DNA of 64,000 nucleotides from a virus. The notes beneath the pieces were generated by a model. That model searched no databases and was not told where the DNA came from. It saw only the letters and a program-made list of their open reading frames with translations. The stretch is taken from positions 1-64,000 of IMG/VR virus record IMGVR_UViG_3300037258_000046. One strand, written 5' to 3'. The stretch's first letter is position 1. Each line of letters opens with the position of its first letter. Both the position numbers and the translations under genes were made by a program. Shown here piece after piece: positions 10,944 through 63,682 of this stretch.

Positions 10944-10986
10944 CGCTGCCTCCTCTAGGTCGCGGGTTGCGCGGCGCAGCGTAGCA
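10944..10986 (-). promoter_or_regulatory. early-type promoter/leader TGC-TACGCT-N7-GCAACCCG-SD
   Basis: -10 10978-83, box 10963-70. Confidence 0.7.
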
Positions 10987-12230: not shown

Positions 12231-13208
12231 TTAGCCGTCGATGTTGCCCGTGCCCCCGTTGGCACCGCTCGGCGTGTTGCTATCGACCCACGACTCGTTC
12301 GCGTTCGCGTTCGAGTGATAGACGAAATCGTAGTTGTCGAGCGCGTACGTCGAGCCCGGGAAGTACGCCGCCTCGAACGCCGCGTTGCCCGCCTCGGCGC
12401 TAGACCCGCTCGTCGTGTGAGCATCGCACGCCGAGCAGCTCGCGACCGGATCGAAGTCCGCAGACTCGCCAGCAGCAGGCGCCGGAACGACCCACGACTC
12501 CGTGCCGTAGAACGTGCCAGTCACTCCACCGACCTGCGGCGGCCCCGGGCACGTCCCGGGATTCGGCTCGTCCACCGACGCGATCGTCGTGAACGTGCCC
12601 GTGATCAGCTCCGACACGTCGTAGCTGCCGTCCGGCAACGGGTTGACCTGGAAGGTCCGGCTGTAGCTGTCGTTCGCCCACGCGTTGCCACAGTCGCCGC
12701 TATCCGGCCCCGAGTTGCTCGCGTAGGTGTAGGTGAACGCGCCGTTGCTTCCCGGCGTGCCAGCGGGCCCCTGCGGGCCCTCAGCGCCGTCCGAGCCGTT
12801 GAAGCCACGCGGACCCTGCTCGCCCTGAACGCCCTGCGGTCCCTGAGCGCCCTGCGCGCCGGTAGCGCCAGTGTCGCCCTTGATGCCGTTCGCGTCCACG
12901 CCAGCCACGCCCTGCGGGCCCTGCGGGCCCTGCGGCCCGACGGCGCCCTGCGGACCAGCCGGGCCCTGCGGCCCGGGAGCACCCGTCGCACCCGTCAGAC
13001 CTGTAGCGCCCGTGTCGCCCTTCGGGCCCTGAATGCCGACCGTGATCGCGTTGCCCTCGAACTTCTTGAGCACGCTCGGCGCGACCTGCGACGTCGACGT
13101 GATCAGGTAGTGGTGCTTCTTCTTGCCCGCGGCCAGCGCCGCGCCTGTACAACCGAACGCCACGACGGCCACAGCCGCCAGCAGCGTCAGGATCTTTGAA
13201 ACTCGCAT
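12231..13208 (-). CDS. exported collagen-like (Gly-X-Y) protein
   Basis: Signal peptide, ~30 GXY triplets, Cys-containing C-terminal domain. Confidence 0.85.
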
Positions 13209-13262
13209 CAGACCTGCTCCTTGTTCGGGTTGCCCTGCCTAGTAATGCGACACACTGTAGCA
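13209..13262 (-). promoter_or_regulatory. early-type promoter/leader (TGC-TACAGT; box 13226-33)
   Basis: -10 13254-59; box displaced by an extra 13 nt; AAGGAG SD. Confidence 0.65.
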
Positions 13263-16979: not shown

Positions 16980-17415
16980 CGTCGACCTCCTCCGGGTTCG
17001 GCGGATTGTCGGCGCTGATGCCCTCGCCGCCCTCAGTGCCCGATCCCGCCGTCGACGTCATCAGCTCCTCGCCCGCAGGAACGATCTCCACCTCGCCGTC
17101 GGCCTGCTCGTTCACGACCGACACGATCCCGCTCGCCGTGATCGCCTCGTACTCGACTCTTTCGCCGTGCGCCTGACGCACGCCTCGCACGACGATCGCC
17201 CACCGCGTCGTGTGCTGCCGCAGCCCTTGCGTCTTGAGTCGATCGAGCGGAAGCGGCTCCGGCCGGTACACGAGCAGCATCGCGCGCTCGTTGTTCTCGC
17301 CCGTCTCGACCGCCGCATGCCCGATCAGCTTGCACGGCCTGCCGAGCTGCTCCTGGAGCTGCCCCATCGCGCTCTCAGCGTCAGCCTTCAACGCTGCCGC
17401 CTGCTCCTTCGTCAT
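16966..17415 (-). CDS. hypothetical protein
   Basis: GAGGAGG RBS after a GCAACCCG leader. Confidence 0.7.
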   Translation of the reverse strand: MTKEQAAALKADAESAMGQLQEQLGRPCKLIGHAAVETGENNERAMLLVYRPEPLPLDRLKTQGLRQHTTRWAIVVRGVRQAHGERVEYEAITASGIVSVVNEQADGEVEIVPAGEELMTSTAGSGTEGGEGISADNPPNPEEVDGGSE

Positions 17416-17457
17416 CGCATCCTCCTCAGTCGTCGGGTTGCGCGGCAGACTGTAGCA
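17416..17457 (-). promoter_or_regulatory. early-type promoter/leader TGC-TACAGT-N7-GCAACCCG-SD
   Basis: -10 17449-54, box 17434-41. Confidence 0.75.
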
Positions 17458-17485: not shown

Positions 17486-18058
17486 CTAGCGCGCTGCTCG
17501 GGCTGTACTGATCGACCGCACGTTGTCCGGCTGCTCCGGCAAATGCCGCCTCACGACGTCGTGGATCTTCGCCAACGTCTCCTCGCCCACGCCGTCCTTC
17601 TCCATCACGTCGAGCACCTCGCGCACGATCACGTTGAAGTCGGCCTCCGCACGCCAGCGCGTCAGATTGCGCGGCAGCTTCCCGATCGCCTGTAGCAGCG
17701 TCATGCGCTCAGCGTCGACCTCGCGCATCTCGCGCATCGCGCCGACCGCAGCCGACGGGTGCACATCGCGATTGGCCTGCCAGAACTCGTCCAGCTCCTC
17801 AAGCATCCGCTCGCGCAGCGCGATCGCGTCCTCGACCACCTCGTTCGGCACGACCGGCGCCGCGAGCTGCTCGCCGTCGCGCAGATAGCGCTGCGCCGTG
17901 TCCTCGCTGATGCCCAGCTCTTTCGCGATCTGCCGCCACGTCATCGGGCGCGAGCGGCCACGCGCATCGACGCGCGCGCGCATCTCCGCGATCTCGCGAG
18001 CGAGCTTCACGCGCCGGTAGAGAACTCCCCCCCGTGCCGCCGCAACCGTTGCGGCCAT
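17486..18058 (-). CDS. HTH DNA-binding protein, candidate terminase small subunit
   Basis: MTWRQIAKELGISEDTAQRYL HTH followed by helical region; TerS role is inference. Confidence 0.55.
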   Translation of the reverse strand: MAATVAAARGGVLYRRVKLAREIAEMRARVDARGRSRPMTWRQIAKELGISEDTAQRYLRDGEQLAAPVVPNEVVEDAIALRERMLEELDEFWQANRDVHPSAAVGAMREMREVDAERMTLLQAIGKLPRNLTRWRAEADFNVIVREVLDVMEKDGVGEETLAKIHDVVRRHLPEQPDNVRSISTARAAR

Positions 18059-19884: not shown

Positions 19885-20636
19885 CAGAGCGCCGCCATCA
19901 CGCTGCGCCGCGTCGCCTTCTTCGCGACGTCGGCCCACACGTGGAAAGCGTTGTCGTAGCCCTTAGAGAACCGGCCGACCACCGTTGCGTCGTAGGCGGC
20001 GCGCCATGCGTCGGTCCCGTTGATCGTCGCCGTCACGTCGAGCCCGAACGCGTCTACCAGCTCGTCAACCTTGAGCGCCAGCGAGTGCGCGCGCGGCACC
20101 TTCGCCAGCTCCTTCTCCAGCTTGGCAGCCCCGCGTGCTGCCTTGCGCGCCTCGACCTCGGCGCGCGAGTGAGCCTTCCGCTGCTCCGTCGTCATCTGCG
20201 CGACCGGCGCCGTCGGATAGCAGACCGTGCACGCCGTCATCGCGATCTCGGCGATGATCTCCGCCTCGCTCTTGCCCGACAGCCACGTCTGCCACGTAAA
20301 GCTCGTATCCCACCGGCAGGTCGAGCAGTCCATCGTCCGGTGCACGTGGCCGCCGTGAGCGGTGCAGAAGAACGCGCGCTCCCAGCCGCCGCGGCGATCG
20401 AACTCTGCGTTGAGGGGAGCCATCTGCTCGCGCAGCTCCGCGAGCTTCGCGGCGTGCTCTTCGAGCCGTGCTGTGCGCTCCGCCAGCTCGCGCTCGCTCT
20501 CGGCGCGCCACGGCATCCGCGGCTTGCTGTCGGCTGCCTGCCATGCGCGTCGCTGCTGGACCTTCCCGTGCAGCTCCGCGAGCTGCTCGTCGATCTCGGG
20601 AGGGGTCTGCTCTGTGATCGGTGTCGTGGTGGTCAT
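19884..20636 (-). CDS. conserved actinophage early protein, Zn-binding (HVHRTMDCSTC...CTVCYP)
   Basis: ATG 20636 after leader and AAGGAG. Confidence 0.75.
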   Translation of the reverse strand: MTTTTPITEQTPPEIDEQLAELHGKVQQRRAWQAADSKPRMPWRAESERELAERTARLEEHAAKLAELREQMAPLNAEFDRRGGWERAFFCTAHGGHVHRTMDCSTCRWDTSFTWQTWLSGKSEAEIIAEIAMTACTVCYPTAPVAQMTTEQRKAHSRAEVEARKAARGAAKLEKELAKVPRAHSLALKVDELVDAFGLDVTATINGTDAWRAAYDATVVGRFSKGYDNAFHVWADVAKKATRRSVMAAL

Positions 20637-20699
20637 CGTCTGCTCCTTAGTTCCGGGTTGCGTTGCAAACTGTAGCACAACGCGGCCCGGACGTGTCAA
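20637..20699 (-). promoter_or_regulatory. strong early promoter TTGACA-N19-TACAGT-N7-GCAACCCG-SD
   Basis: -35 20694-99, -10 20669-74, box 20654-61. Confidence 0.8.
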
Positions 20700-21196: not shown

Positions 21197-21508
21197 TCAG
21201 ATCCCCAGCGCGCGGCGCTCGGCCTGCCAGAAGCGGCAGATGGGCCCGGTGTACTTCTGCTCCGTGTAGAGCGGCGAGTCGACGATCGCGCGCACCGCCT
21301 CGTTGCCCTTCGCCAGATGGTTGTCGATCGCGCGGCGCGTCGCTGCCGCGTTGCGGCCGGTCAGCGAGCCGTTGCCCATGCGCCGGTCGATCGACGTCAG
21401 TCCGTTCGTCGCGCGCTGGAGCTGCCCTTCGAGCCGCAGCATCTCGCGGACGTCCTGGAAGCTCGGCTCGCTCGTCTGTGTCTGTGTCTGTGTCTGTGTC
21501 GTGGTCAT
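21197..21508 (-). CDS. hypothetical protein with N-terminal (TQ)4 encoded by an ACACAG microsatellite
   Basis: ATG 21508 after leader; (TGTCTG)n at ~21474-21500. Confidence 0.65.
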   Translation of the reverse strand: MTTTQTQTQTQTSEPSFQDVREMLRLEGQLQRATNGLTSIDRRMGNGSLTGRNAAATRRAIDNHLAKGNEAVRAIVDSPLYTEQKYTGPICRFWQAERRALGI

Positions 21509-21563
21509 CGTCTGCTCCTGTCGTCGTCGGGTTGCGTTGCAAACTGTAGCACAACGCAACCCG
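21509..21563 (-). promoter_or_regulatory. early-type promoter with a 12-bp inverted repeat flanking the -10
   Basis: cgggttgcgttg 21528-39 / caacgcaacccg 21552-63; -10 21543-48. Confidence 0.75.
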
Positions 21564-21968: not shown

Positions 21969-22439
21969 TCAGAACTCGTCGTGGTAGCAGGATGCGCGGT
22001 AGGCGGCTTCGCCGACCTCGTCGCAATACACGTTCGTGCGCTCGCCCTTGACCCACACCTTCGAGCCGCGCTTGAAGACGCGCCGGACGGTGTAGGTGTC
22101 ATCGAAGGCTAGGTCGACGGTCACGCTGTAGCCGTGAGCGACCGGGAGAGTAATCCCCGTCTCGCGGACGCCGACGCGGCCGCCGCTGATGCCGAGCACG
22201 TTCATGCGCCCGATCTGCGCGACGATCGTCTTGGCGTCGGCGCGATCGTCGAACTCCTGCGCCGCCGCCTCCTCCGTCTCGCCGACGAACTTCTTGTGGA
22301 TCGCCAGCGCGATGTCCTTCGTGTCGATCCCGGTCTGCTCGCTCGCGACGGCCAGCGCTTGCTCGACCGTGGCGCCCGCGTTGCGGCGGCTGTAGAAGTG
22401 ATCGACTGCGGCGGGGAGAAGGTTGCTAGTGATGGTCAT
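21969..22439 (-). CDS. conserved actinophage early protein (QIGRMNVLGISGG...DDTYTVRR)
   Basis: ATG 22439 after leader. Confidence 0.7.
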   Translation of the reverse strand: MTITSNLLPAAVDHFYSRRNAGATVEQALAVASEQTGIDTKDIALAIHKKFVGETEEAAAQEFDDRADAKTIVAQIGRMNVLGISGGRVGVRETGITLPVAHGYSVTVDLAFDDTYTVRRVFKRGSKVWVKGERTNVYCDEVGEAAYRASCYHDEF

Positions 22440-22508
22440 GTCGGGCTCCTTGTCGTTCGTTCCGGGTTGCGTTGCAAACTGTAGCACATCTCCCGGCCGA
22501 GCTGTCAA
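22440..22508 (-). promoter_or_regulatory. strong early promoter TTGACA-N19-TACAGT-N7-GCAACCCG-SD
   Basis: -35 22503-08, -10 22478-83, box 22463-70. Confidence 0.8.
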
Positions 22509-22568: not shown

Positions 22569-23093
22569 TCAGCCGCCGCACTCCGGCACCGTGACCGGCC
22601 ACGCCAGCCGATGCCCCGGCTCCCAATAGTCGAACACGGCCACCTGCTCAGCAGGCGTCGCGACGACAGACCCCGCGAGCGGATCCTGCGGGTCGCTGCT
22701 CAACGGCCAATCCTCACCCATGTCGGCCGTCGCCTCGTCCCACGTCGACGGCTCGAACTGAAAGCCGCCCATGAATCCGTTCCCCGTGTTGATCGTCCAA
22801 TCGTCGGTGCTCTCGTGCTCGAAGACGCACGACGCGAGCGCCGACATCGACGGCGCCGCGTCAGTCTCGACAACGACGGCCGCCGCGTGAGCCTCTGCGC
22901 GAGCATCCGCGCGCAACGCGATCCGACAATGCCAGCGGTCGAGGTGATGCGACCGACGGCAGGCGTGGCGTGCTACCCGAACGATGCAGCCCCGATGCGG
23001 GCCGCAGTGCTTCTCCTGATGATGAACGCTGCCAGCTACACCGAATCCGGCGAGCAGTGCAACGAATGTGAAAGCGAGTCGGTGGACTTCAAC
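22569..23093 (-). CDS. Rpf-like (resuscitation-promoting factor) transglycosylase; start uncertain
   Basis: CVFEHES..WTINTGNGFMGGFQFEPSTW...ATPAEQVAV...AWP..CG; the frame extends upstream of TTG 22916 through a signal-like segment. Confidence 0.8.
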   Translation of the reverse strand, partial: VEVHRLAFTFVALLAGFGVAGSVHHQEKHCGPHRGCIVRVARHACRRSHHLDRWHCRIALRADARAEAHAAAVVVETDAAPSMSALASCVFEHESTDDWTINTGNGFMGGFQFEPSTWDEATADMGEDWPLSSDPQDPLAGSVVATPAEQVAVFDYWEPGHRLAWPVTVPECGG

Positions 23094-23143
23094 CGGCCTC
23101 CTCTTCGTTTTCGCGTCGTGACCACGACGCCGGGCGCCGAGCG

Positions 23144-24310: not shown

Positions 24311-24543
24311 GGGAGCGGCCACCGCGCGATCACGCCGTCGGCCTCTTCGTCCGGTCGGTTGTAGTAGCGCGTCAGCATCGCCTTCACGTCCGCATCGGTC
24401 CAGCGCCGCTCGCCGCGGATCTCGTCCTCGGCGTCCAGGATCGCGTCGATCAGGGGATCGGCGAGCGTGCCGAGCCCCGGTGCGATGCCGTCGAGTCGAT
24501 CTCGCCACGCCGCACGCCGCGGCGCGTCGGTTGCTTGTGCCAT
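24307..24543 (-). CDS. hypothetical protein
   Basis: GAGGAGG RBS after leader. Confidence 0.7.
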   Translation of the reverse strand: MAQATDAPRRAAWRDRLDGIAPGLGTLADPLIDAILDAEDEIRGERRWTDADVKAMLTRYYNRPDEEADGVIARWPLP

Positions 24544-24582
24544 CGTCGCCTCCTCAGTCGGGTTGCGCGACGGAAGGTAGCA
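24544..24582 (-). promoter_or_regulatory. early-type promoter/leader TGC-TACCTT-N7-GCAACCCG-SD
   Basis: -10 24574-79, box 24559-66; lies inside the upstream ORF's 3' end. Confidence 0.7.
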
Positions 24583-25920: not shown

Positions 25921-26789
25921 GCGACCACCGCGACTTCCAGCAGCTCCGCCTTCGAGGGGCGCATGAAGAACCCGAAGCTCTCGTCGTCGCGGCTGGCCTC
26001 GACCGTCGCCGTGAACGTCACGCGCGAGCCCTTCTCGACGCCCGGGATCTCCTGATACATGCCGTCTGCGTCGTGGAAGCGCGACATCTCGATCGCGGCC
26101 GGAACGCTCCCCCACACCTTGAAGCCGCGGTCGTCACGGACGAGCATCTTGTGCTGCTCGCCGTAGTCGCTCGTCTGCCACTTCTCCGAGAGCACCTCGC
26201 CCGTGATCACGATGCGACCCTCGACCACCGGCGCCGTCGGCTCCGGCGCCACGTCCTCGGCGAGCAGGTCGCGAGCCATCGTGCGCATGATCGCCGCGAC
26301 GTAGCGGTCGCTCGTCGAGCCGTAGTTGCGGACCTTCTGCGCGAACTTGTGGCAGAACTCGGACGGGTGATCAGCGGCGAAGCCGAACGCCACCTCGCGG
26401 TCCGGGTCGATCGCGAACCACCGCAGCCGGATCGTCTTGATGCGCTGCGCTGCGCGGTCAAGCTCGGCGCGCTTGCGCATCGCGTGGAACTCGCCGGTCG
26501 CGCGCTCGAAGCGATTGTCTAGGCACGTCTCGCCGACGCGGATCAGCTCGCCCGTCGGCAGGTATTCCATCACCGCGTAGTAGCGGATGCGCGCGCCGCA
26601 GTGATAGCAGCTCCCCGCGCTGTAGTTCTCGCCGAACTTCTTGCCGTCTGCCGTCGCCGCGCGAATCGTCGGGTCGATGTAGGCAGGCTCGCCGTCAGCG
26701 CCGCCGAAGTCGCCGCAGCCGACGAACTCGTAATCCTCAGTGACTAGGTTCTTTGGGGCGTGGACGTCGGTGCGAATGTTGCGTGTCAT
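25917..26789 (-). CDS. Zn-finger plus C-terminal OB-fold protein
   Basis: CYHCG...VGETC; RIVITGEVLSEK...KMLVRDDRGFKVWGSVP...GSRVTFTATV. Confidence 0.7.
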   Translation of the reverse strand: MTRNIRTDVHAPKNLVTEDYEFVGCGDFGGADGEPAYIDPTIRAATADGKKFGENYSAGSCYHCGARIRYYAVMEYLPTGELIRVGETCLDNRFERATGEFHAMRKRAELDRAAQRIKTIRLRWFAIDPDREVAFGFAADHPSEFCHKFAQKVRNYGSTSDRYVAAIMRTMARDLLAEDVAPEPTAPVVEGRIVITGEVLSEKWQTSDYGEQHKMLVRDDRGFKVWGSVPAAIEMSRFHDADGMYQEIPGVEKGSRVTFTATVEASRDDESFGFFMRPSKAELLEVAVVA

Positions 26790-27117
26790 CGTGGGCTCCA
26801 GTCGTCTCGGGTTGCGCTGCAAACTGTAGCACAACCGTCGGCGTGTGTGTCAAGTCCTCGATCGCCCCGCAGAGCGGGCACGGCGCGCGCTCTCTCCCGC
26901 CCTCCGGGTTGCGCATCCGGGCCCCACACTCGCACTCCCGCCACGCATGCCCGGCGTACACGTACGCGCCGCGCACGAGCCGATACAGGGCCCTCCCGGG
27001 CCCCGGCCGGTCGAAGCACATGCCGCCCGAGCGCCGCTCGCCAATCCAGACGAACGGCGCCCGAGCGCACGCATCAAGCCCGTCGTGCGGGCCGCCCACT
27101 ACAGCGACCCGCGGCAC
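26737..27117 (-). CDS. hypothetical Zn-finger protein (VGGPHDG; CECG; CPLCG)
   Basis: Starts right after the upstream stop; the C-terminus runs through the next promoter. Confidence 0.45.
   Translation of the reverse strand: MPRVAVVGGPHDGLDACARAPFVWIGERRSGGMCFDRPGPGRALYRLVRGAYVYAGHAWRECECGARMRNPEGGRERAPCPLCGAIEDLTHTPTVVLQFAAQPETTGAHDDTQHSHRRPRPKEPSH
26790..26853 (-). promoter_or_regulatory. strong early promoter TTGACA-N19-TACAGT-N7-GCAACCCG-SD
   Basis: -35 26848-53, -10 26823-28, box 26808-15. Confidence 0.8.
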
Positions 27118-28359: not shown

Positions 28360-28515
28360 CTACTCGCCGTCGACGTCCTCGCCTTGCTCGCCCTGCTCGG
28401 CGTCGCCCTGCTCCGTCTCCGGCGTCTCCGGCGTCTCGGCGGGCTCCTGCGTGATCTCCACATCGCCGTCGCCGTGCTGCTCGACGTGCACTCCGTCTCG
28501 CTGCTCTTCCGTCAT
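28360..28515 (-). CDS. 51-aa highly acidic protein
   Basis: MTEEQRDGVHVEQHGDGDVEITQEPAETPETPETEQGDAEQGEQGEDVDGE; preceded by TCAACCCG-ACG-AAGGAG. Confidence 0.65.
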   Translation of the reverse strand: MTEEQRDGVHVEQHGDGDVEITQEPAETPETPETEQGDAEQGEQGEDVDGE

Positions 28516-28563
28516 CGCCTGCTCCTTCGTCGGGTTGACCGCCCGGGAGACTACCCGGACGGT

Positions 28564-29358
28564 CTACGCCTCTACCGGCTCGGCTTCGCGCGGCGCCAGC
28601 CCGGCCGCAGCAGCAGCAGCGCCGAACTGCGCCAGATGCAGCTCTTCGACGTACGCCAGCCGCGCGTCGACGGCCGTGTCCGATGCCGTGTCGACCGCGG
28701 GCGCGTCGCCGCGCTTGCGCGCGAACGCGTTGACCAGCTCGATCGCGGTCCCGACCGCCTGCTCCGTGACCGCGACGTCGTCGAGACGCACGTCGGCGCC
28801 GGGCTCGGCGAAGTCGTTGAAGAACGCCAGCTCGCACAGCATCAGCGCGTTCCCGCCGCGGCGCGGCCGCAGCACGCCGAGCTTCTCGCGCGACGTCGAG
28901 ATCCACTTCACGACCGCCACGCGGTCGGTCTTGTGCAGCGCTTGCGTGAGCAGCTTGAGCGCCGGGCCCGTGCCGTTGCGCGGCTGAACCCAATACGAGC
29001 CGACGATGCGCTCCGTCGGCACCGATCGGTAGTCGATCGTCTCCAGCACCTCCATCGCCGGATGCGCCTCGACCGACGCCTCCGTGATCGCCGCGAGCCG
29101 CTCAGGGTCGAGCTTGATCACGCGGCTGTCGCTGACGCGCACCGCCTTGTAGACGCCATCTGCGGGCGTCCGCGAGCCGCCGCCGCCGCCGCCCATGGTC
29201 GACGTGACCGGCACCGCCTCGCCCGTCTCCGGGTCGACCTCGTCGCGAACGTACTCCGTCTTCGGCTCACGGCTGTGCACCGTCTTCGCGAACGAAACCT
29301 CAAGCTGAAAGTCGCCAAATGCGATCGCCGTGTTCCGTGCTCCACGTCCTGCCATCAC
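28564..29358 (-). CDS. ku: Ku-like DNA end-binding protein
   Basis: AIAFGDFQLEVSF...YKAVRVSDSRVIKLD...SYWVQP..GTGPALKLLTQALHKTDRVAVVK...REKLGVLRP...LMLCELAF. Confidence 0.8.
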   Translation of the reverse strand: MMAGRGARNTAIAFGDFQLEVSFAKTVHSREPKTEYVRDEVDPETGEAVPVTSTMGGGGGGSRTPADGVYKAVRVSDSRVIKLDPERLAAITEASVEAHPAMEVLETIDYRSVPTERIVGSYWVQPRNGTGPALKLLTQALHKTDRVAVVKWISTSREKLGVLRPRRGGNALMLCELAFFNDFAEPGADVRLDDVAVTEQAVGTAIELVNAFARKRGDAPAVDTASDTAVDARLAYVEELHLAQFGAAAAAAGLAPREAEPVEA

Positions 29359-29396
29359 TGCCTCCTGTCTGTCGGGTTGCGCGACAGACTGTAGCA
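29359..29396 (-). promoter_or_regulatory. early-type promoter/leader TGC-TACAGT-N7-GCAACCCG-SD
   Basis: -10 29388-93, box 29373-80. Confidence 0.75.
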
Positions 29397-30663: not shown

Positions 30664-30751
30664 GCCGCATCACCTTCGACGCGAGCCACATCGCCACGAA
30701 CGGCGCAGCGGCCAGCGCTCCGTACCACCATGTCGAGAAGTCTCTGTGCAT
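30656..30751 (-). CDS. 31-aa single-TM peptide
   Basis: MHRDFSTWWYGALAAAPFVAMWLASKVMRRG after leader and AAGGAG. Confidence 0.6.
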   Translation of the reverse strand: MHRDFSTWWYGALAAAPFVAMWLASKVMRRG

Positions 30752-30790
30752 CGCCAGCTCCTTAGTCGGGTTGCGCGACACACTGTAGCA
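30752..30790 (-). promoter_or_regulatory. early-type promoter/leader TGC-TACAGT-N7-GCAACCCG-SD
   Basis: -10 30782-87, box 30767-74. Confidence 0.75.
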
Positions 30791-33072: not shown

Positions 33073-33528
33073 TCAGCCCGTCGCGGACGCCGGGTCTGCC
33101 GCTGCGTCGGCGATCGCCTCGACGAACGTCGGGCGAAGCACCTGCCGGATCTTGTAGCCGACGATCCGGCCCTCCTTGCGCTTCACCACGACCTGCGCCG
33201 CCGTCGCGATCTCGTAGCTGACCATCACGCGGCCCGGACTGTCCGGGTCGATCATGCCCGCGCTGACCGGCACCTCCGCCGACATCAGCGACGCCGTGAC
33301 CTCGACCGGCAGGCCCGGCTTGATCAGGTTCTTGAGCGTCTTCTTTGGATCGCCCTCGACCGTCCCGAGCGGGAACAGCTCCTCCTGCTCGTCGTCGTCG
33401 GCCATCTCCGCGATCGACTTGCCGTCAGCCGCCGCGGCTTCTGCGGCTTCGCGGTCTTGGCGCTCCTGCCGCCGCCGCGCTATCTCGTTGTCCGCTGATG
33501 TTGCCTCGTTCTCGTCTTCCACCGTCAT
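33073..33528 (-). CDS. hypothetical protein
   Basis: Preceded by GCAACCCG-AGGAGG (33544-51). Confidence 0.7.
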   Translation of the reverse strand: MTVEDENEATSADNEIARRRQERQDREAAEAAAADGKSIAEMADDDEQEELFPLGTVEGDPKKTLKNLIKPGLPVEVTASLMSAEVPVSAGMIDPDSPGRVMVSYEIATAAQVVVKRKEGRIVGYKIRQVLRPTFVEAIADAAADPASATG

Positions 33529-33754
33529 CGGTGTCTTCCTCCTCGGGTTGCTTGAGATGGACGCGCACCACGGGCCCGAGCCCGGGCACCACGTTCGCCG
33601 CGACCGATCCGACAGCCTCGATCAGCAGCGCCTTCCTACCTTCCTGCAACAGCTCGCCTTCTGTGACGATCACCACGTCGATGATCGCCACGTCGAGCGG
33701 TTCACTGTACGCCTCGCCGGGCGCGAGAGTGATCCTCAGCTCACCCGTCGACAT
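33425..33754 (-). CDS. hypothetical protein (overlaps next gene)
   Basis: MSTGELRITLAPGE...; the C-terminal overlap makes it uncertain. Confidence 0.4.
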   Translation of the reverse strand: MSTGELRITLAPGEAYSEPLDVAIIDVVIVTEGELLQEGRKALLIEAVGSVAANVVPGLGPVVRVHLKQPEEEDTDDGGRRERGNISGQRDSAAAAGAPRPRSRRSRGG

Positions 33755-34659: not shown

Positions 34660-35999
34660 TCGCCGTTACGCCGTCGAGCAGCGCGCGTCCGTGCGCCCTT
34701 CCGTGCGCTGACCGACCGCCGCGTCGCTGCGGCAAGCATCTTCTCCGTCGCCACGACCTCGTCGAGCATCGGCGGCGCGTCCTTCGGGTTGTACGCCTCG
34801 AACTTCGTGACCGACCTCGTGCGATACAGCTTCGTCGGATCGAGCCCCTGCGCGATCGCCTCGCGCATCTCCGCCTCGCTCGGCCTCGTCGTCTGCTGCC
34901 GGATCACCGGGCCCCACAGCCGCGTCCGCTTCGAGTCCTTGATCGCGAGCGGCCCGTGCATATTCGTCCACGGCCGCAGCGACTCGCTCAACCGGCGCTT
35001 CACCGCATCGACGACGGCGAACATCTTCCCAACGCGCTCGGCCTCCTCAAGCGACGCGATGCGCCCGTCTCGACGCAAGCTCGGCAGGATCGGACAGTGC
35101 TCCGGCTGCGCGCAATTCCAGCAGTGAGATCCCGGCGACGGCTTCCACACGCCCTCTTCGTATGAGCGGTCGAAGCGCTCGACGATCTGCGTGAACTCCG
35201 ACAGCAGCTCCGGCATCTTGTAGCGGTGGATCGACGCCTCGCGCGTCGGCTTCTGCGACGTCGACGTCATGTAGCGCACGTACACCTCGCGCAGCGTCAC
35301 GCGCTGAATGCCCGGGAACGTCAAGAACACGAGCAGCGCGTAGAACCGCTGCTGGAAGTAGCCCTCCTCGCTGATCGGCTCGTCGTCCGGGTCAGCGCCG
35401 TCCGGGAGATCCTCCGCCGCCACCCGCTCCGGCGGCAGACCCCACCCGCTCTTGAAATCCGGCACGATCGCGTGCCACCCGTTGCGCTCGATCAGCAGCA
35501 GATCCGGGCGGCCCGTGATCGTGCGCTGCACCATCAGGTCCCCGGGCGCCGGGTACGGCTTCGCCGGGTACTCGATCACCGCCTCCATGCGCTGCTCGAT
35601 CCCCGCGATGTCTCGCACGTCCCACTCACTCCCGAGCGCCCACGTGATCACACACACCCGCGCTTCGGCGATCCACCGCAGCGGCAGCGGCGCGACGCTG
35701 TCCTCGTCGCCGAGCATCGGCACGTCGGCCTGCCTGATCGTCCGCTCGAACTCCTGAATCGCGATCTCGACCGGGCAGCGCGTCTCGCCCCGCGCCAGCA
35801 TCAGCCGCATGCACCGCGCGATCGTCCGGTGCACGATCGTGCCCGCCGCCGCCGGGAAGCTAGAGAACTGATGATCCTCGAACTGCATCGACCACCGCGC
35901 GCTCAACGGGCACGCGTCGAACGCCGCGAGCTGCGACTGCCGCAGCCTCGGGAACGCCGCCATCGCCCGCGGGAACGGGACCACCTCCGTGCTCGTCAT
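34656..35999 (-). CDS. Cas4/RecB-like PD-(D/E)XK exonuclease
   Basis: SQLAAFDACP, GTIVH, GRPDLL, DFKSG, QQRFY, PGSHCWNC...CP. Confidence 0.85.
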   Translation of the reverse strand: MTSTEVVPFPRAMAAFPRLRQSQLAAFDACPLSARWSMQFEDHQFSSFPAAAGTIVHRTIARCMRLMLARGETRCPVEIAIQEFERTIRQADVPMLGDEDSVAPLPLRWIAEARVCVITWALGSEWDVRDIAGIEQRMEAVIEYPAKPYPAPGDLMVQRTITGRPDLLLIERNGWHAIVPDFKSGWGLPPERVAAEDLPDGADPDDEPISEEGYFQQRFYALLVFLTFPGIQRVTLREVYVRYMTSTSQKPTREASIHRYKMPELLSEFTQIVERFDRSYEEGVWKPSPGSHCWNCAQPEHCPILPSLRRDGRIASLEEAERVGKMFAVVDAVKRRLSESLRPWTNMHGPLAIKDSKRTRLWGPVIRQQTTRPSEAEMREAIAQGLDPTKLYRTRSVTKFEAYNPKDAPPMLDEVVATEKMLAAATRRSVSARKGARTRAARRRNGE

Positions 36000-36010
36000 C
36001 GCGCCGGAGT

Positions 36011-37210
36011 CTAGAAGTCGACTGAATCGTCGCCGCTGCTACGCGGACGCCACCCGAGCGGCACGCCGAGCGTCGTGAGCTGCTGATCGAGCCAATTCAG
36101 CTCGTCGACCAGCTCGGCGTCCTGCTTCTCGTTCGCGTTCTCGCGCAGCTCGTCGATCGCCGTCAGGCGCTCTAGGAACGGGTGCACCTGCGCACGCCAC
36201 GTCGCGTCGCTCTCCCACCGCGCCTGCGCCGCAGTCCAGTCCGCGCCCGTCTCCTCGCCCGCCTCGGGCTCCACGTCGCCGGAGACGGCCTCCTGCGCGC
36301 CCTCGACGCCGTTCTCGGCCATCGCAGCCTCAGCGCTCGGCGACACATCGTCAGCCACGACGACGGCATCCTCCGGCTCGTTCTCGGCAAGCCACTGCTC
36401 CAGCTCGCGCTTCACCTGAGCGAGCTGCACCGGAGTCGCGCCCTGCGTCCTCGCGCGCAGCACGCCCTCCGTGAACGCCGTCGGGTCCAAGTCGCGGATG
36501 CGCTCATACAGCGGAGCGATCTCCGGATCGAGCGGCTGAAAGTCACCGACGTCGGCGGCGCCAAGGCCACCGCTTGCGCCCGGCAGGTCGAGCCCAGCGC
36601 CCAGCTCGTCGAAGGGCACTGGCCCGGACACGCCATAGGTGATTCGCGTGATGTAGCTCGTCGCGGCTTTGACCATCATCGCGTGCAGAAATGACCATGC
36701 CGACCTCGCAGCGTCTTTGGCGTACTCCGCCCTCGGGGCGTAGAAGTAGCGATCCGGCTTGCCCTGACGGCGCAGGATCGCGTACGCGCCCACGACCTCG
36801 CCCCGCTTGCTCGGGTGGTCGTACTCGTGCACGATCGTGCGCTTGCCGTTCTCGGCGCGCCGAACGCGAAAGACGTCGTTCTCGCACACGACGTCGGCGT
36901 CGACGTCGATGAAGTGCTCGTCGCGGCGCGCGATCTTGAGGTAGCCATCACGGCCGACCATGACCGCGAGCCTCCCCGGCGCGCCGTTCTTGCCCGGCAT
37001 CTGCGCCAGCCAAATCTCGTTCAGCAGCGGATTCAGGTCGAGCGCCGCCGCCTCTTCGAGATAGCGCTGGAGCAGCGCCGTGTCGTTGATCGCGGGCGCG
37101 CCAACCGTGGCGGCAATCGTCGAGACGAGCGCCGGACTAAAAGTGCGCTTCGCCGCGGCGGAGAGACGGACTACGTTCGTGCCCGGAGCGGGCGGAGATT
37201 GCGTTGGCAT
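36011..37210 (-). CDS. recT: RecT/Bet single-strand annealing protein
   Basis: LNPLLNEIW...MVGRDGYLKIA...VVCENDVF...VVGAYA..R...MMVKAA. Confidence 0.85.
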   Translation of the reverse strand: MPTQSPPAPGTNVVRLSAAAKRTFSPALVSTIAATVGAPAINDTALLQRYLEEAAALDLNPLLNEIWLAQMPGKNGAPGRLAVMVGRDGYLKIARRDEHFIDVDADVVCENDVFRVRRAENGKRTIVHEYDHPSKRGEVVGAYAILRRQGKPDRYFYAPRAEYAKDAARSAWSFLHAMMVKAATSYITRITYGVSGPVPFDELGAGLDLPGASGGLGAADVGDFQPLDPEIAPLYERIRDLDPTAFTEGVLRARTQGATPVQLAQVKRELEQWLAENEPEDAVVVADDVSPSAEAAMAENGVEGAQEAVSGDVEPEAGEETGADWTAAQARWESDATWRAQVHPFLERLTAIDELRENANEKQDAELVDELNWLDQQLTTLGVPLGWRPRSSGDDSVDF

Positions 37211-37249
37211 CGTGGACTCCGTTCGGGTTGCAGTGCGAGCACCCTAGCA
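37211..37249 (-). promoter_or_regulatory. early-type promoter/leader TGC-TAGGGT-N9-GCAACCCG-SD
   Basis: -10 37241-46, box 37224-31. Confidence 0.6.
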
Positions 37250-37261
37250 GCCGTGCCAAAC

Positions 37262-37303
37262 GAAAAAACGGGCCGCCCGGGGAAGGTGTTCCGGGCGGCC
37301 CGT
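37262..37303 (-). terminator. intrinsic terminator
   Basis: 13-bp stem ACGGGCCGCCCGG/CCGGGCGGCCCGT followed by a T tract. Confidence 0.85.
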
Positions 37304-37361
37304 GAGTGCAGCACCCCGACAATGACCAGTGCAACCCGGACGTAGGAGGGGGCGCCGCTTC
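37262..37361 (-). ncRNA. candidate ~100-nt antisense sRNA complementary to early-mRNA leaders
   Basis: GCGGC-TATGAT -10 (37368-73); 10-bp stem 37349-58/37308-17 enclosing CUCCUACGUCCGGGUUGC; terminator. Confidence 0.5.
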
Positions 37362-37379
37362 CTACGCATCATAGCCGCT

Positions 37380-38504
37380 CTACGCCTTGATGATGAAGCT
37401 GCGAACCGTCAGGTACGGCGGAAGGTTGTTATGCGCCGCACCACCGCCCTGCGAGCTGATCGACAGCGCCCCCACCGACAGCGACGGGATCGACAGCGCA
37501 GGGATCGTGACCGCCGGGATCGCGTGCGTGTGCCCGAACCCCGTGAACTTGCGAAAGTCGTTCGAGATGAACGTGCCGCCCTCGACCGCGGAGGTGCCCG
37601 CGAGAATGAACGGCTCCCACTCGTTGCCCGACATCGCGCCGTTCGGGTTGTAGACGCCACCGTCCTCCCACGTCGGCTCGCCCGTCGGGCCCACCGACGC
37701 CGATCCGCCGCCCGTCGACCCGCTGCCCGTCGAGCCTGAGCCCGTCGCGCCGCCGTGGTTGTGCGACGGCGCCTCGCCGATCGTCAGCACATGCGTCGCC
37801 TCGCCACCGCCCGCGCCAGCAGTCAGCGCCGTCGCTCGACCGGCCGCGCCCGCCGAGCCCATGTTGTCCGGGCCGACCGCCGTGCGCGCCCGCATGTCCG
37901 GCAGCGCGAAGTTCCCCGCCGACACCGCCGTGCCGTGCGTCGCGAGATAGTCCGCGTTGTAGAGCGTCCCGATCACGCCATACAGCGCCGGGTAGGTCGC
38001 CTGCGCCACCTGCGACCCGTCGCAGATCAGCCACCCCGTCGGCGCGGCCGAGCCGCTCCACGGCAGCGGGCCGAGCCCCGTCGGCAGGATCGGCGACGCG
38101 AGCAGGCTCGCGAGGTTCGGCTGCCCCACGAGCTGCGTGAGCTGCGTGATCGCCGTCCCGTTCCACGCGACCGTCGCGACCTTGCGATACGCGTAGACGC
38201 CCGTCGGCGTCGAGCCCGACGCCACGCTCACCATCGAGAAGCCCGCGGGCGAACTGTCGACGCTCGCCGTGTACGAGTTCGCTCCCGACGTCGTCACGAA
38301 GATGTCGTAGTTGCCCGCGGCACCCGACACGGTGCACGTCACCGTGCCCGAGTTCACGTAGCGGTAGAGCCCGCCGATCGAGATGCTGACCTGCTGATCG
38401 CCCGTCCCCGGGTTGTTTCCCTGCTGATTGACCGCGGAGAGCTGCGTCGTCCCGATGACCGCGAGCTGAAAGTTCGGCGCGGAGCCCGAGAGCATCTCCT
38501 GCAC
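37380..38504 (-). CDS. tail fibre with collar domain
   Basis: APTGWLICDGSQVAQATYPALYGVIG...FALPDMR...HNNLPPYL; start uncertain. Confidence 0.85.
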   Translation of the reverse strand: MQEMLSGSAPNFQLAVIGTTQLSAVNQQGNNPGTGDQQVSISIGGLYRYVNSGTVTCTVSGAAGNYDIFVTTSGANSYTASVDSSPAGFSMVSVASGSTPTGVYAYRKVATVAWNGTAITQLTQLVGQPNLASLLASPILPTGLGPLPWSGSAAPTGWLICDGSQVAQATYPALYGVIGTLYNADYLATHGTAVSAGNFALPDMRARTAVGPDNMGSAGAAGRATALTAGAGGGEATHVLTIGEAPSHNHGGATGSGSTGSGSTGGGSASVGPTGEPTWEDGGVYNPNGAMSGNEWEPFILAGTSAVEGGTFISNDFRKFTGFGHTHAIPAVTIPALSIPSLSVGALSISSQGGGAAHNNLPPYLTVRSFIIKA

Positions 38505-38614
38505 CGCCTCGAAGAACCGCGCCGCGGCCGCCTGCGAATAGCTGAGGGGAACGTCCTGTGTGATCCCTCAAGGGTACGGCGCCCAGCGGCAGCGACGTAG
38601 ATTCTAGAATTGTC

Positions 38615-39166
38615 CTAGATCACGTCGCCGACGGCCGAGATGCCGACGATGAAGTGGCCGGTCCCCGAGCCGCCACCCGAGCCGCCCGACGCGCCCGCGA
38701 TCAGATAGTTCGCCGGGATCAACCGGCGCGCGATCACCGCGATCACGCCCTGAAAGTAAGACGTCGACGGGAACGTCGTCGTAATCGTGATCTCGCCCGT
38801 CGACGGCACGCCCACCTGATAGCTCCACGTCGTCGAGCCCAGCAGCGTGTTCATCGCGTTGACCCACTCCGCCGTCGTGCGACACCTGCGCCCGACCATC
38901 GCCGCCTGCACCGCCTGCTGCCTCACCGCCAGCGACTCGCTCGGCGGCGCGATCGGCAACCCCAAGATGCCCTCCCAAATCGACAGCATCCCCAGCGAGT
39001 CGTCGGCGAGCGTCGGCACGAGCCCGTTCTGCACGCTGATCAGATACGCCTCGCAGCGGTCGATCTCGTTCGCGATGCCCTGCACGATCCGCGCGAGCGT
39101 CGGATCGCCCCCATAGTAAGGAGGGAGACTGTCGAAGATGCGCGCCGCGGTCGGAGAGAGCGCCAT
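38615..39166 (-). CDS. baseplate wedge protein (DUF2313/XkdU-like)
   Basis: LPPYY...EIDR...LSIWEGILGL...R...IPAN; synteny. Confidence 0.75.
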   Translation of the reverse strand: MALSPTAARIFDSLPPYYGGDPTLARIVQGIANEIDRCEAYLISVQNGLVPTLADDSLGMLSIWEGILGLPIAPPSESLAVRQQAVQAAMVGRRCRTTAEWVNAMNTLLGSTTWSYQVGVPSTGEITITTTFPSTSYFQGVIAVIARRLIPANYLIAGASGGSGGGSGTGHFIVGISAVGDVI

Positions 39167-58380: not shown

Positions 58381-58766
58381 CAGAGCGTGTCCTTCGCGTC
58401 GAGGTTGACCCACATCAGGCCCGTCGGGCAGCCGTAGGTTCCGGGAAGCGCCACGATGCGGCCGACCTTGACCTGCCCGGTCGACGGTGCGCCAAGACCA
58501 ACGACGCCCGTGGCCGTCGTGATGTAGACCTCTTCGCCGAACGTTGCGCCGCCGATCGCGGCCACCTCGACGACGCCGGTCGTGATCAGGAAGAACGGCT
58601 CGCTGACGGCGATGACGTTGATGTTCGCGCGAGCGGTCGCGATCGTGTAGCCCTGCTGCTTGACAGCAGTGCCGACGTACCCGCCCTCATAGGTCAGATC
58701 GCCGTGGCTGCATGACCGGGTGGCAGCGGGGACGTGTACCCCGCGGCTGGAGACGTTCAGCGGCAT
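58380..58766 (-). CDS. capsid cement/decoration protein (DUF2190-like)
   Basis: GYVGTAV...TTGVVEV...FGEEVY...VG; position. Confidence 0.7.
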   Translation of the reverse strand: MPLNVSSRGVHVPAATRSCSHGDLTYEGGYVGTAVKQQGYTIATARANINVIAVSEPFFLITTGVVEVAAIGGATFGEEVYITTATGVVGLGAPSTGQVKVGRIVALPGTYGCPTGLMWVNLDAKDTL

Positions 58767-60076
58767 TACTCAGCGCCTCCCCGCGCCGGAGCGGGCTCAC
58801 CCGTCAGGCGCTTCGTGTCGACTCCGGCAGACCGCAGGCCAGTCGCGAAGCTCGCGCGACCGCGGGAACGAGTTCCGTGCGCCGGAGGAGTTCCCCCGTC
58901 GCCCGTGGTGGCCGCACCCTGCCCGCGCACGCGGGTGGGCTGCGCCTCCGCGAGCTTCAAGCGCTCGCGTGCGATGTCGGCGTCCAGAGCCTCCTGGAGC
59001 ACCTTGAGCGCAGGCTTCGTGACCGCACCCTCGCCGTCGCGCTCGGCGACGACATCGAGAGCGGCGCTCGGACGCGCCTCGCCCGACTCCTCGATCGAGA
59101 GCCGGTAGCGAAGGTTCAGATCGTCCTGGAAGGTGGGCGGCAGCTTCGACTCCGAGATGACGCGCTTGGCCTCGGCGTGCAGGTCACGAATCTCGACCTG
59201 ACGACGCGACTCCGAGCGGATCTCCGTCTCCAGCGACTCGCGGATCTCGGCGGTCTGCGCCTTCACCTTCGTCTCGACGATCGTGTCGATGGCAGTCGCG
59301 AACTCCGTGGACGCGAGTGCCTCTTCGAGCGTGATGGGCTTGGCGTCGTCGGTCACGAGTGGCTCCGGTTCAGGCGGCTCAGGGGGAGCTGCGGCTTCGA
59401 GCAGATGCGGCCGATGCTCACGGAGGTGAAAGACGAGATCATCGTCTCCCAGCCCCGACAACGTGCGCTCTGCATCACCATGTTCACGATCATAGTCGGC
59501 CTCTGCGAGTGCAAGTACATGCCCGCCCGCTCCGGCGCGCGTCACGAAGTCGACGCTCGACTCGTCCGCGCCATCGAAGCCCTCGACCAGCTCGGACGGC
59601 TTGCCGCGGTAGTTCGCGCGGCGCACCCCGGTCGCGAAAGTGCGGACGCTCAGCTTCACCGCGTTGGGCACCGCCTCGATCAGCTCGCGCATCTCGCGCG
59701 TCGGCATAGCGCGGCCGATGACCGCGCCCTTCTCGTGGCCAAGCTCCGTGTCCTGCGGCGTCTCGAAGTCCGGATCCCAGCTCGTCTCGCGGATCTCGCC
59801 GCGCAGATCGCCGGTCGGTCGCGGCAGCCCGCCGCGCAGCTTCTTGATCGCCGGGCTCTCGTGGTTGTCGAACATCGGCAACCCCTTGAAGAACGAGTGC
59901 TGCGACTCCAGCAGCTCGCGAGGATAGACGCGCTTCCCGCGGCCGCGCGCCTGCCCCGGCCGGATCAGCACCACGTTCACGGTGCCGTCCTCGTTGAACG
60001 GGCCGCCGCCGTCCGTGCTCTCCTGGAGCAGCAGGGGGATCGTCTCAACGACGTCCGGCGTGCGAGTTCCGGTCAC
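58766..60076 (-). CDS. prohead protease-scaffold fusion
   Basis: IRPG..RGKRVYPRELL, MFDNH, LSV, SVDFVTRAGAGG; acidic coiled-coil C-terminus. Confidence 0.8.
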   Translation of the reverse strand: MTGTRTPDVVETIPLLLQESTDGGGPFNEDGTVNVVLIRPGQARGRGKRVYPRELLESQHSFFKGLPMFDNHESPAIKKLRGGLPRPTGDLRGEIRETSWDPDFETPQDTELGHEKGAVIGRAMPTREMRELIEAVPNAVKLSVRTFATGVRRANYRGKPSELVEGFDGADESSVDFVTRAGAGGHVLALAEADYDREHGDAERTLSGLGDDDLVFHLREHRPHLLEAAAPPEPPEPEPLVTDDAKPITLEEALASTEFATAIDTIVETKVKAQTAEIRESLETEIRSESRRQVEIRDLHAEAKRVISESKLPPTFQDDLNLRYRLSIEESGEARPSAALDVVAERDGEGAVTKPALKVLQEALDADIARERLKLAEAQPTRVRGQGAATTGDGGTPPAHGTRSRGRASFATGLRSAGVDTKRLTGEPAPARGGAE

Positions 60077-60383: not shown

Positions 60384-60637
60384 CAGAACGGCAGATCGTC
60401 GGCGTGGTCGACGATCGCGACGGCCGGGCGAATCACACGCACGAGCTTGTAGTCAGCGACCACCGCGCGAGCCTCGCGAATGCCCTCCGGCTCCGGGCCC
60501 TGCTCCCAGCTATGAACGGCCATCGCGTCGTACGGGTCGAAGCCCATCGACACCGCGCCCATGCCCACCTCGGCCGCGATCTCGCTCGCCTGCTCCTCCC
60601 ACTCCTCGATCGTGGTGAAGGCTTCATCTACGGTCAT
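60383..60637 (-). CDS. hypothetical acidic protein (ends DDLPF)
   Basis: ATG 60637 after leader. Confidence 0.65.
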   Translation of the reverse strand: MTVDEAFTTIEEWEEQASEIAAEVGMGAVSMGFDPYDAMAVHSWEQGPEPEGIREARAVVADYKLVRVIRPAVAIVDHADDLPF

Positions 60638-60683
60638 CGTCTGCTCCTGTCGGTCGGTTCGGGTTGCGCCGCAAACTGTAGCA
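60638..60683 (-). promoter_or_regulatory. early-type promoter/leader TGC-TACAGT-N7-GCAACCCG-SD
   Basis: -10 60675-80, box 60660-67. Confidence 0.75.
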
Positions 60684-62954: not shown

Positions 62955-63169
62955 GTGACCGGCCCTCCCGCCTCGCGCGAGAACGACGCGAGCACGCGCG
63001 GCAGAAGCACCGTCTCCTCCGTCGCCTCGATCGTGAAGTCAGCCACGCCGCGCAGGCGTAGCTCCATCGCCAGCTTCTCGGCGATCACGGCAACGGCGCC
63101 CGCCGCCTCCTGCTCGCCGTCGTCCGCCTCCGTAGCGCGGACCTCAATCGTGTACTTCGCTGTCGCCAT
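62951..63169 (-). CDS. hypothetical protein
   Basis: AAGGAG RBS after leader. Confidence 0.65.
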   Translation of the reverse strand: MATAKYTIEVRATEADDGEQEAAGAVAVIAEKLAMELRLRGVADFTIEATEETVLLPRVLASFSREAGGPVT

Positions 63170-63209
63170 CGTTCACTCCTTCGTTCGGGTTGCGCTACAC
63201 AGTGTAGCA
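63170..63209 (-). promoter_or_regulatory. early-type promoter/leader TGC-TACACT-N7-GCAACCCG-SD
   Basis: -10 63201-06, box 63186-93. Confidence 0.75.
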
Positions 63210-63338: not shown

Positions 63339-63682
63339 CAGGTCACGAACTCCGTGTTTGAGTTCGAGTCGAGCGCCTCAAGCGTCGGCGGATCGAGATG
63401 GCCATGCGCGCGCAACCCGACCGACCGCTGGAAGCCCTGCACCGCTCCCACCGTGCTCGCACCGTAGTGGCCGGGCGTGTCGCTGTGCGGGAACCCCTTC
63501 GCCGCGAGCTTGCGCTGAGCCGTCCGCACATGCGGGCCCGTCGACCCCGGCGGGATCGACGCAGGCTCCGCATCCGTCGGCCCGTTGTAGGCGCCCATCG
63601 CCGTCTCGCCATCGCCGCCGCCGCCCGGCAGGAACGCCTCTTCGACGACACCGCGGACCAGCGGACGATTCAACGCGCTCAC
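63338..63682 (-). CDS. stand-alone peptidoglycan-binding domain protein
   Basis: GSTGPHVRTAQRKLAAKGF...GHYGASTVGAVQGFQRSVGL..HGHLDPPT.EAL. Confidence 0.75.
   Translation of the reverse strand: MSALNRPLVRGVVEEAFLPGGGGDGETAMGAYNGPTDAEPASIPPGSTGPHVRTAQRKLAAKGFPHSDTPGHYGASTVGAVQGFQRSVGLRAHGHLDPPTLEALDSNSNTEFVT

Follow-up and report, generated by a model that had tools for sequence, protein, structure and literature searches.

A candidate antisense loop against a leader shared by many genes of an uncultured soil phage

The c4 RNA of phages P1 and P7, the CI RNA of P4, and the sar RNA of P22 are phage antisense RNAs that act on one or two sites within a single immunity operon. In T4, the protein repressor RegA binds the translation-initiation regions of many early messenger RNAs (mRNAs) and shuts them off as infection advances. 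To our knowledge, no phage antisense RNA described so far acts on more than one or two sites, and where many early messages are known to be silenced together, as by T4 RegA, the agent is a protein. Here, we analyze a hairpin encoded on the minus strand of an uncultured phage, the loop of which carries the reverse complement of a leader sequence shared by about 18 predicted mRNAs. The window under study comprises bases 1 to 64000 of a 74,208-bp viral contig from soil metagenomes (IMG/VR record IMGVR_UViG_3300037258_000046), estimated to be about 70% complete. The hairpin lies in the gap between the last tail gene and recT.

Host-encoded small RNAs (sRNAs) with C-rich loops, such as ar14/NfeR1 (RF02344), 6C/B11 of Actinobacteria, and RoxS/RsaE, pair with the Shine-Dalgarno (SD) region only, and in Actinobacteria such anti-SD pairing works without Hfq. 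CpxQ and SroC are sRNAs derived from 3' untranslated regions (UTRs) and are host stress regulators. A further parallel comes from the Cluster K mycobacteriophages, in which Start-Associated Sequences (SAS; GGGATAGGAGCCC) lie, all oriented alike, ahead of 11 to 19 non-structural genes (Pope et al. 2011, PMC3203893). In Cluster K1, one SAS stands in reverse orientation, away from gene starts, and was left unexplained (PMC3203893). The same study contrasts SAS with the stoperators of mycobacteriophage L5, which are DNA sites for the immunity repressor (PMC3203893). According to RNA sequencing of Adephagia, late transcription begins between genes 92 and 93 (PMC11373665).

The inverted leader copy and its hairpin

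Many minus-strand genes of the phage share a promoter-leader cassette, which consists of an extended -10 element (TGCTACAGT), 7 nt, the box GCAACCCG, 3 to 14 nt, GGAG, and the start codon. The box occurs 24 times compared with 2.8 expected, and 18 of these occurrences are on the minus strand. Thirteen boxes are preceded by an extended -10 of the form TGCTAC/GNNT; the spacing is 7 nt in 11 of them, whereas recT has 9 nt and the cassette at 13233 has 28 nt. On the minus strand we counted 16 strict units of box, N3-14, GGAG, and start codon, together with two or three variants. When the standard distance between a -10 element and the transcription start is applied to the cassette, the box would lie at the very 5' end of the mRNA.

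An inverted copy of this leader is found in the 169-nt gap that follows the tail-collar-domain gene (38504-37380, minus strand; stop codon TAG, 37382-37380; Pfam PF07484 Collar, E = 1.7e-15). This is the last gene of the tail/baseplate block, with genes for Baseplate_J and a Mu gp48-like protein upstream, and the gap lies at the end of the late block. On the other side is recT (37210-36011, minus strand; PF03837, E = 5.8e-19; ATG at 37210). Pfam thus supports both flanking genes named in an earlier note on this DNA, made from the sequence alone. Read along the minus strand, the gap contains GCGGC-TATGAT, a 10-bp stem enclosing a 31-nt loop, a 4-nt spacer, a terminator, and the recT cassette.

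The first 18 nt of the loop, CUCCUACGUCCGGGUUGC (37331-37348, minus strand), form what we call the anti-leader. They are the exact reverse complement of GCAACCCG-GACGTA-GGAG, that is, of the box, a 6-nt spacer, and the SD; the plus strand at 37331-37348 reads GCAACCCGGACGTAGGAG. The 18-nt complementarity described in the earlier note is therefore confirmed, as are its 16/18 match to one leader and all other sequence observations in that note. This leader (63193-63176, minus strand) is the only other match to the plus-strand copy within three mismatches; it belongs to the cassette nearest the inverted copy in sequence (63169-63209, minus strand; leader GCAACCCGAACGAAGGAG). The strict box-plus-SD pattern occurs once on the plus strand of the 74-kb genome, which bears out its reported uniqueness, with a looser copy at 63412. 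No ATG, GTG, or TTG is found within 14 nt downstream of the plus-strand GGAGG, again as stated before.

At least one strict plus-strand copy arose in 5% of second-order Markov genomes, and the joint chance of a strict copy that also falls in a non-coding gap is about 0.01 to 0.03. At the -10 position of the cassette, exactly 7 nt upstream of the box, the inverted copy has GACAAT (TACAGT in the cassettes; P = 0.004). It has no TGC extension, which is invariant in 13/13 cassettes. Only 5/9 positions of the extended -10 region are kept, and the flanks are about 50% identical to the closest leader; the box (8/8) and GGAGG have all 13 positions intact. The part that would pair is therefore intact and the promoter-like part decayed, which argues for selection on pairing rather than on promoter function. 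This pattern suggests that a cassette was duplicated in inverted orientation and that selection then preserved the part able to pair with RNA. Another plus-strand box, at 4821-4838 (GCAACCCGACGTAG..., then ACGTAG as at 37331), lies in an open reading frame (ORF; 4992-4537), and its leader-likeness was not significant.

RNAfold reproduced all the structural features proposed in the earlier note. In the minimum free energy (MFE) structure of the minus-strand RNA, the 5' arm GCGGCGCCCC (37349-37358) and the 3' arm GGGGUGCUGC (37308-37317) form the 10-bp stem around the 31-nt loop (37348-37318). Two of its pairs are G-U pairs, which correspond to A-C mismatches on the plus strand. Within the loop, a 4-bp hairpin, CCGG/CUGG (37326-37339, minus strand), presents GUUGCA in both the MFE and the centroid structures. 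GUUGCA is complementary to the (U)GCAAC predicted at the 5' terminus of box-led mRNAs. The stem-loop and terminator together gave a z score of -3.3. For the hairpin alone, the minus strand yielded -27.5 kcal/mol (z = -2.8) and the plus strand -18.1 kcal/mol (z = -0.3); the predicted fold is specific to the minus strand.

Four nucleotides after the 10-bp stem begins an intrinsic terminator (37263-37303, minus strand) with a 13-bp G+C stem, a 10-nt loop (AACACCUUCC), and U6. A standard terminator scan missed it because its loop is 10 nt long. A custom scan of both strands of the 74-kb genome detected it as the sole strong hairpin followed by T5 or more. Since it is unique, the most sharply defined of the predicted RNA 3' ends of the phage lies directly behind the anti-leader loop.

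Searches against Rfam gave no family at gathering score anywhere in the window, and c4, 6C, and other curated phage or actinobacterial sRNA families had no match at that score. A sub-threshold match to ar14 (RF02344) spans the whole unit (31.6 bits compared with a gathering score of 58.8; E = 3e-4 in 400 nt). Besides ar14, only ftsZ-DE, Hrs13, and RcsR1 matched the locus with E values of 1 or less; all four scores lie below threshold and come mostly from the terminator. The terminator loop (37281-37290, minus strand) holds a second, imperfect anti-SD-like tract, CCUUCC, which aligns to the second CCUCCUCCC loop of the ar14 model. A 42-codon ORF at 37372-37244 was rejected as a gene; its third-position G+C content is about 64%, compared with 85 to 93% in genes, and it crosses the terminator hairpin.

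Predicted pairing and the box-led genes

The accessible loop offers a perfect seed of 8 to 10 nt to 16 leaders. Treated as 5'-terminal RNAs, 17 of 18 leaders formed duplexes with the anti-leader over box and SD, for which the predicted net energy ranged from -8 to -15.5 kcal/mol. In a genome scan corrected for accessibility, leaders made up 6 to 8 of the top 20 windows, compared with about 0.3 expected.

We propose, with a probability of roughly 0.4, that an RNA made late, either as the 3' UTR of the tail operon or as a unit of about 100 nt, uses its clamp-held loop to pair with box and SD and thereby blocks translation of the box-led mRNAs. According to this model, the transcript of the late tail operon would end in the structured minus-strand segment 37262-37361, which may also be made as a separate RNA of about 100 nt from the GCGGC-TATGAT site. 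The 10-bp G+C clamp would keep the 31-nt loop open, with its first 18 nt antisense to the box and the SD (GGAG/GGAGG) of about 18 mRNAs. These mRNAs, predicted to begin at the extended -10 promoters, include those of recT, the Ku-like gene, and many small non-structural genes, which we infer to be expressed early. Late in infection, the GUUGCA mini-loop would nucleate on the single-stranded 5'-GCAAC end. Pairing in the cell would then zip into a two-part duplex over box and SD, keep the 30S subunit from binding, and so silence translation of the box-led genes. Structural genes would be spared, since they have no box and are led by box-less promoters; some of their mRNAs appear to be leaderless.

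The box-led genes lie outside the head and tail blocks and comprise recT, the Ku-like gene, a gene for a collagen-repeat protein, and many small ORFs. All of their cassettes are on the minus strand. That of recT (37208-37249) has the -10 TGCTAGGGT at 37249-37241, the box at 37231-37224, and GGAG at 37220-37217, ahead of the ATG at 37210. The Ku-like gene is preceded by the cassette at 29358-29396 (box, 29380-29373). Two cassettes, at 26789-26831 (box, 26815-26808) and 22439-22486 (box, 22470-22463), have a TTGACA -35. Further cassettes are found at 30751-30790 (box, 30774-30767), 24543-24582 (box, 24566-24559), 17415-17457 (box, 17441-17434), and 10943-10986 (box, 10970-10963). The leader at 33528-33551 (box, 33551-33544) has no recognizable TGCTAC -10, and that at 28515-28538 has the variant box TCAACCCG. 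In the cassette at 13208-13262 (box, 13233-13226), which precedes the collagen-repeat gene, 28 nt (gtgtcgcattactaggcagg...) separate the -10 and the box. This spacing in the cassette at 13226-13262 would place the box away from the mRNA 5' end.

In the cassette at 20636-20677 (box, 20661-20654), the leader is complementary to the anti-leader over 10 nt and the SD. This cassette and those at 60637-60683 (box, 60667-60660) and 21508-21551 (box, 21535-21528) are near-identical from GCGTTGTGCTACAGTTTGC through AGGAGCAGACGATGACC, the first two codons included. The three are paralogues, in which promoter, leader, and gene start were recently duplicated. At the cassette at 21508-21551 the feature extends to 21563, since the -10 is flanked by the palindrome CGGGTTGCGTTG/CAACGCAACCCG, with an inverted box at 21556-21563 on the plus strand. 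This palindrome (21528-21563) is perfect over 12 bp, brackets the -10, and has an operator-like look; 6/8 versions of it are present at 20677 and 60683.

The phage has a base composition of 69% G+C, at most 19% of its genome is non-coding, and nearly all of its genes are on the minus strand. A sheath protein, Baseplate_J, the Mu gp48-like protein, and the tail-collar fiber indicate a contractile tail; a gpA-type terminase and a capsid protein were also identified. An Rpf-type transglycosylase domain (22569-23108, minus strand; PF06737) and the Ku homologue (28564-29358, minus strand; PF02735), both typical of actinobacteriophages, point to an actinobacterial host. No tRNAs were found, nor was an integrase or resolvase in this approximately 70% complete record.

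A Cluster K parallel and the rival explanations

We located the reverse SAS of Cluster K1 at 59870-59882 in Anaya (JF704106; gp96-97 gap) and at 58682-58694 in Adephagia (JF704105; gp92-93 gap), both of which are non-coding. In these two phages, the reverse SAS is read on the transcribed strand as the 10-nt loop CCUCCUAUCC of a GCGCGG/CCGCGC hairpin (z = -4.0). The region around this site is conserved in 138 Cluster K records. Of 11 aligned phages, seven retain the anti-SAS and share an identical loop; six of the seven are recorded as Anayavirus species. In the same alignment, compensatory changes are seen in the neighboring hairpin and in the outer stem. As a whole, this part of the last large intergenic gap is a non-coding region of two hairpins (Anaya 59802-59919), the second of which shows the reverse SAS; some Cluster K1 records annotate a hypothetical protein over it.

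Several results weigh against an antisense switch. The Cluster K phages Keshu, SirPhilip, and Amgine retain 15 to 18 SAS with scrambled loops, and TM4 and Pixie have no reverse SAS site (PMC3203893), so the supposed anti-loop partner is not obligatory in Cluster K. A looser inverted copy in our phage, at 63412 with the SD-like GGAAG, has the same leader-likeness as the copy at 37331 (p = 0.014 each); because this coding copy scores the same, sequence similarity alone is weak. The copy at 63412-63434 on the plus strand (GCAACCCGACCGACCGCTGGAAG) resembles the 60667 leader and is coding and unstructured. It was rejected as a second anti-leader, since the codons of a peptidoglycan-binding motif, FQRSVGL (FQRSVGLRAHG), account for its sequence, and it is probably due to chance. 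When the loop was paired in turn with every 45-nt window, the plain duplex energy averaged -21.7 kcal/mol, and leaders were not the best matches; even after correction for accessibility, many coding windows scored similarly. Because of the 69% G+C background, the leaders are not cleanly separated in the target ranking. The expectation that they would rank top among hybridization partners thus holds as an enrichment near the top and fails as a clean separation.

The origin of the RNA is a further weak point. The minus-strand GCGGC-TATGAT (37368-37378; TATGAT, 37373-37368) had been taken as a possible late-type -10 for an RNA of about 100 nt with a predicted start near 37361, because it resembles the -10s before structural genes. 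The motif is present and resembles four to five late-type sites, and no -35 is found at the right spacing. All six copies of GCGG[CG]TANNNT are on the minus strand, compared with 3.4 expected, and the plus strand has none (P = 0.125). Because this enrichment is not significant, the likeness is weak evidence for a promoter, and a separate promoter is uncertain. The RNA may be no more than the 3' UTR of the late tail operon. The same GCGG[CG]TAnnnT context (GCGCGG(C/G)-TAGGAT/TATCCT) is seen on the minus strand at 60093, 56608, 54211, and 5835, 6 to 11 nt before the start codons of structural-block genes. Several of these sites would yield leaderless mRNAs; TTGAYK stands 19 nt upstream of two of them, and ATCTARG is found at three.

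The outcome of searches beyond this genome likewise counts against the antisense reading. We found no RNA sequencing runs with this sequence. Searches of the locus against phages by blastn returned nothing. Four soil DNA runs examined over 35800-38800 contained the identical strain and showed no informative difference within the element; some bins were uncovered. With tblastn, the RecT, tail-collar, and capsid proteins gave only distant matches of 25 to 37% identity. IMG/VR scans with RecT, a RecT alignment, the terminase, and the cassette pattern returned nothing or one match at 29%. A RecT profile found nothing in 800 sampled Myxococcota and Actinomycetota genomes, and a loosened 15-base pattern gave only single chance matches in genome and metagenome contigs. 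Across the phage, IMG/VR, and sampled genome collections, no relative bearing the cassette was found. RecT homologues with 40 to 57% identity are present on metagenome contigs of up to 70 kb.

The inverted copy could instead be a non-functional remnant of an inverted duplication or recombination that left a cassette at a module junction, the hairpin and terminator merely ending and stabilizing the late mRNA and the loop sequence having no part in regulation. Phage mosaic joints are common at module junctions, and the element lies at such a place, between the tail block and the recombination genes. The plus-strand copy also resembles a whole cassette, from the GACAAT exactly 7 nt upstream through box, spacer, and SD, it is closest to one leader (63193; 16/18), and the coding copy at 63412 illustrates that leader-like inverted copies arise without function. 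We nevertheless consider a non-functional remnant unlikely. A remnant does not predict the uneven decay, with 5/9 positions left in the extended -10 and about 50% in the flanks but 13/13 in box and GGAGG, nor does it predict a 10-bp stem with strand-specific G-U pairs that frames the copy exactly. A role at the DNA level, with GCAACCCG bound by a phage regulator at +1 to +8 of about 16 promoters in the manner of L5 stoperators or of the ESAS inverted repeats of Cluster K, seems less likely again. In this case, the 37331 copy would act with the recT box at 37231 (CGGGTTGC-N99-GCAACCCG) to repress or loop the recT promoter. Three cassettes do have a palindrome around the -10 and so suggest that the box could act at the DNA level, against an RNA target: it is perfect (CGGGTTGCGTTG...CAACGCAACCCG) at the cassette at 21551 and kept at 6/8 at 20677 and 60683. 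Moreover, three of the six plus-strand boxes are located no more than 220 nt upstream of a cassette on the minus strand (about 0.3 expected), and regulator binding to ESAS repeats has been suggested (PMC11373665). However, those three cassettes are paralogues that share sequence through the first codons and amount to roughly one event, the palindrome is absent at the other ten, and the spacings of 28, 107, and 226 bp are out of helical phase. An operator also leaves unexplained why GGAGG is kept at leader-like spacing in an untranslated inverted copy (P ~0.02). No clear repressor or integrase was found in the approximately 70% complete record, only a sub-threshold HTH_3 match (13.7 bits, 17876-17944).

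Two further explanations were considered. As a cis insulator, the anti-leader would pair, in RNA reading through the terminator, with the recT leader 100 nt downstream, so that only transcripts from its own promoter would allow recT to be translated. That leader (GCAACCCGAACGGAG) is on the same strand and is complementary to the loop over 9 bp plus the SD, with a 3-nt bulge. A very strong terminator with a 13-bp G+C stem and U6 stands between the two, the MFE fold of the read-through RNA retains both local hairpins and leaves the loop unpaired with the recT leader, and other leaders fit the loop better (63193, at 16/18, with a net energy of -15.5 kcal/mol, compared with -8.2 kcal/mol for recT). 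Such insulation is thus improbable. We give still less credence to a function of the plus strand, in which an antisense RNA from a weak early-type promoter (GACAAT-N7-box) would run into the tail-collar gene from its 3' end and dampen late genes early in infection. The -10-like hexamer has the exact cassette spacing, and the leader-like start is followed by no ORF. Nonetheless, the TGC extension invariant in the 13 cassettes and a -35 are both missing, the plus-strand RNA folds no better than shuffled sequences (z = -0.3), and no plus-strand terminator is present.

Pairing of a late-made RNA with the box-led leaders is therefore the reading we favor, at the probability given above. Of the one-to-many antisense RNA put forward in the earlier note, the anatomy holds: a strand-specific hairpin, a unique terminator at the end of the tail operon, and an intact box and SD. 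The leaders did not rank cleanly, and an RNA with its own promoter is uncertain.

Comparison with described systems

The earlier note knew of no described phage system of this design. This statement needs qualifying, as phage antisense RNAs, anti-SD sRNAs, and the unexplained single reverse SAS copy of Cluster K (PMC3203893) are all known. If the antisense reading is true, the phage tags a whole class of genes with a common 5' sequence and silences it with one antisense loop, and a one-to-many logic so far known only for the protein RegA of T4 would exist in RNA form. It could also explain the purpose of the SAS, open since 2011. The Cluster K1 parallel makes the idea testable in Adephagia and Anaya on Mycobacterium smegmatis, for which BRED mutagenesis is available. 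Such a device would also be a compact and programmable tool for controlling genes in Actinobacteria, in which Hfq is absent. That actinophages, and possibly phages more widely, repeatedly use a late, clamp-stemmed loop, antisense to the SAS or leader common to their early and accessory genes, as a global translational off-switch and RNA equivalent of T4 RegA is a broader idea that we regard as doubtful. The K1 reverse SAS would then be another case, and the SAS would gain their first mechanistic handle.

Like the c4, CI, and sar RNAs, the candidate described here is a phage-encoded antisense sequence presented by a hairpin, which would be directed against a ribosome-binding region or leader and made within a longer transcript. 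Unlike them, it would target about 18 dispersed mRNAs through a shared leader. With T4 RegA it would have in common that one phage factor serves many early mRNAs, the factor here being a base-pairing RNA that recognizes a shared 5' box and SD instead of a protein. It resembles the anti-SD sRNAs in its hairpins, its intrinsic terminator, and its CCUCC-type loop motifs against the SD of many mRNAs, and differs from them in that specificity would come from an additional 8-nt box. As in CpxQ and SroC, the terminator would be shared with the upstream mRNA, and the RNA may arise by processing or from an internal promoter. The boxes are, like L5 stoperators, many short asymmetric intergenic sites oriented with transcription. 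In contrast to stoperators, they lie at the predicted mRNA 5' end and are linked to an SD, and no such repressor or integrase was found in the incomplete record.

Several features are shared with the SAS of Cluster K. Both are short, asymmetric, SD-linked motifs of actinophages, placed with a single orientation before many non-structural genes; the SAS often follow a SigA-like promoter that has inverted repeats. The SAS sequence itself (GGGATAGGAGCCC) is absent from our phage, as neither strand of the 74-kb genome contains a copy with up to two mismatches, and the conserved block here consists of the predicted mRNA 5' end and a separate SD joined by a variable spacer. As in Cluster K1, a start-linked motif in one orientation is accompanied by one reverse copy in the loop of a non-coding hairpin on the transcribed strand. 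The K1 copy lies in the gap where late transcription is reported to start, whereas the copy described here lies at the 3' end of a late operon, before its terminator.

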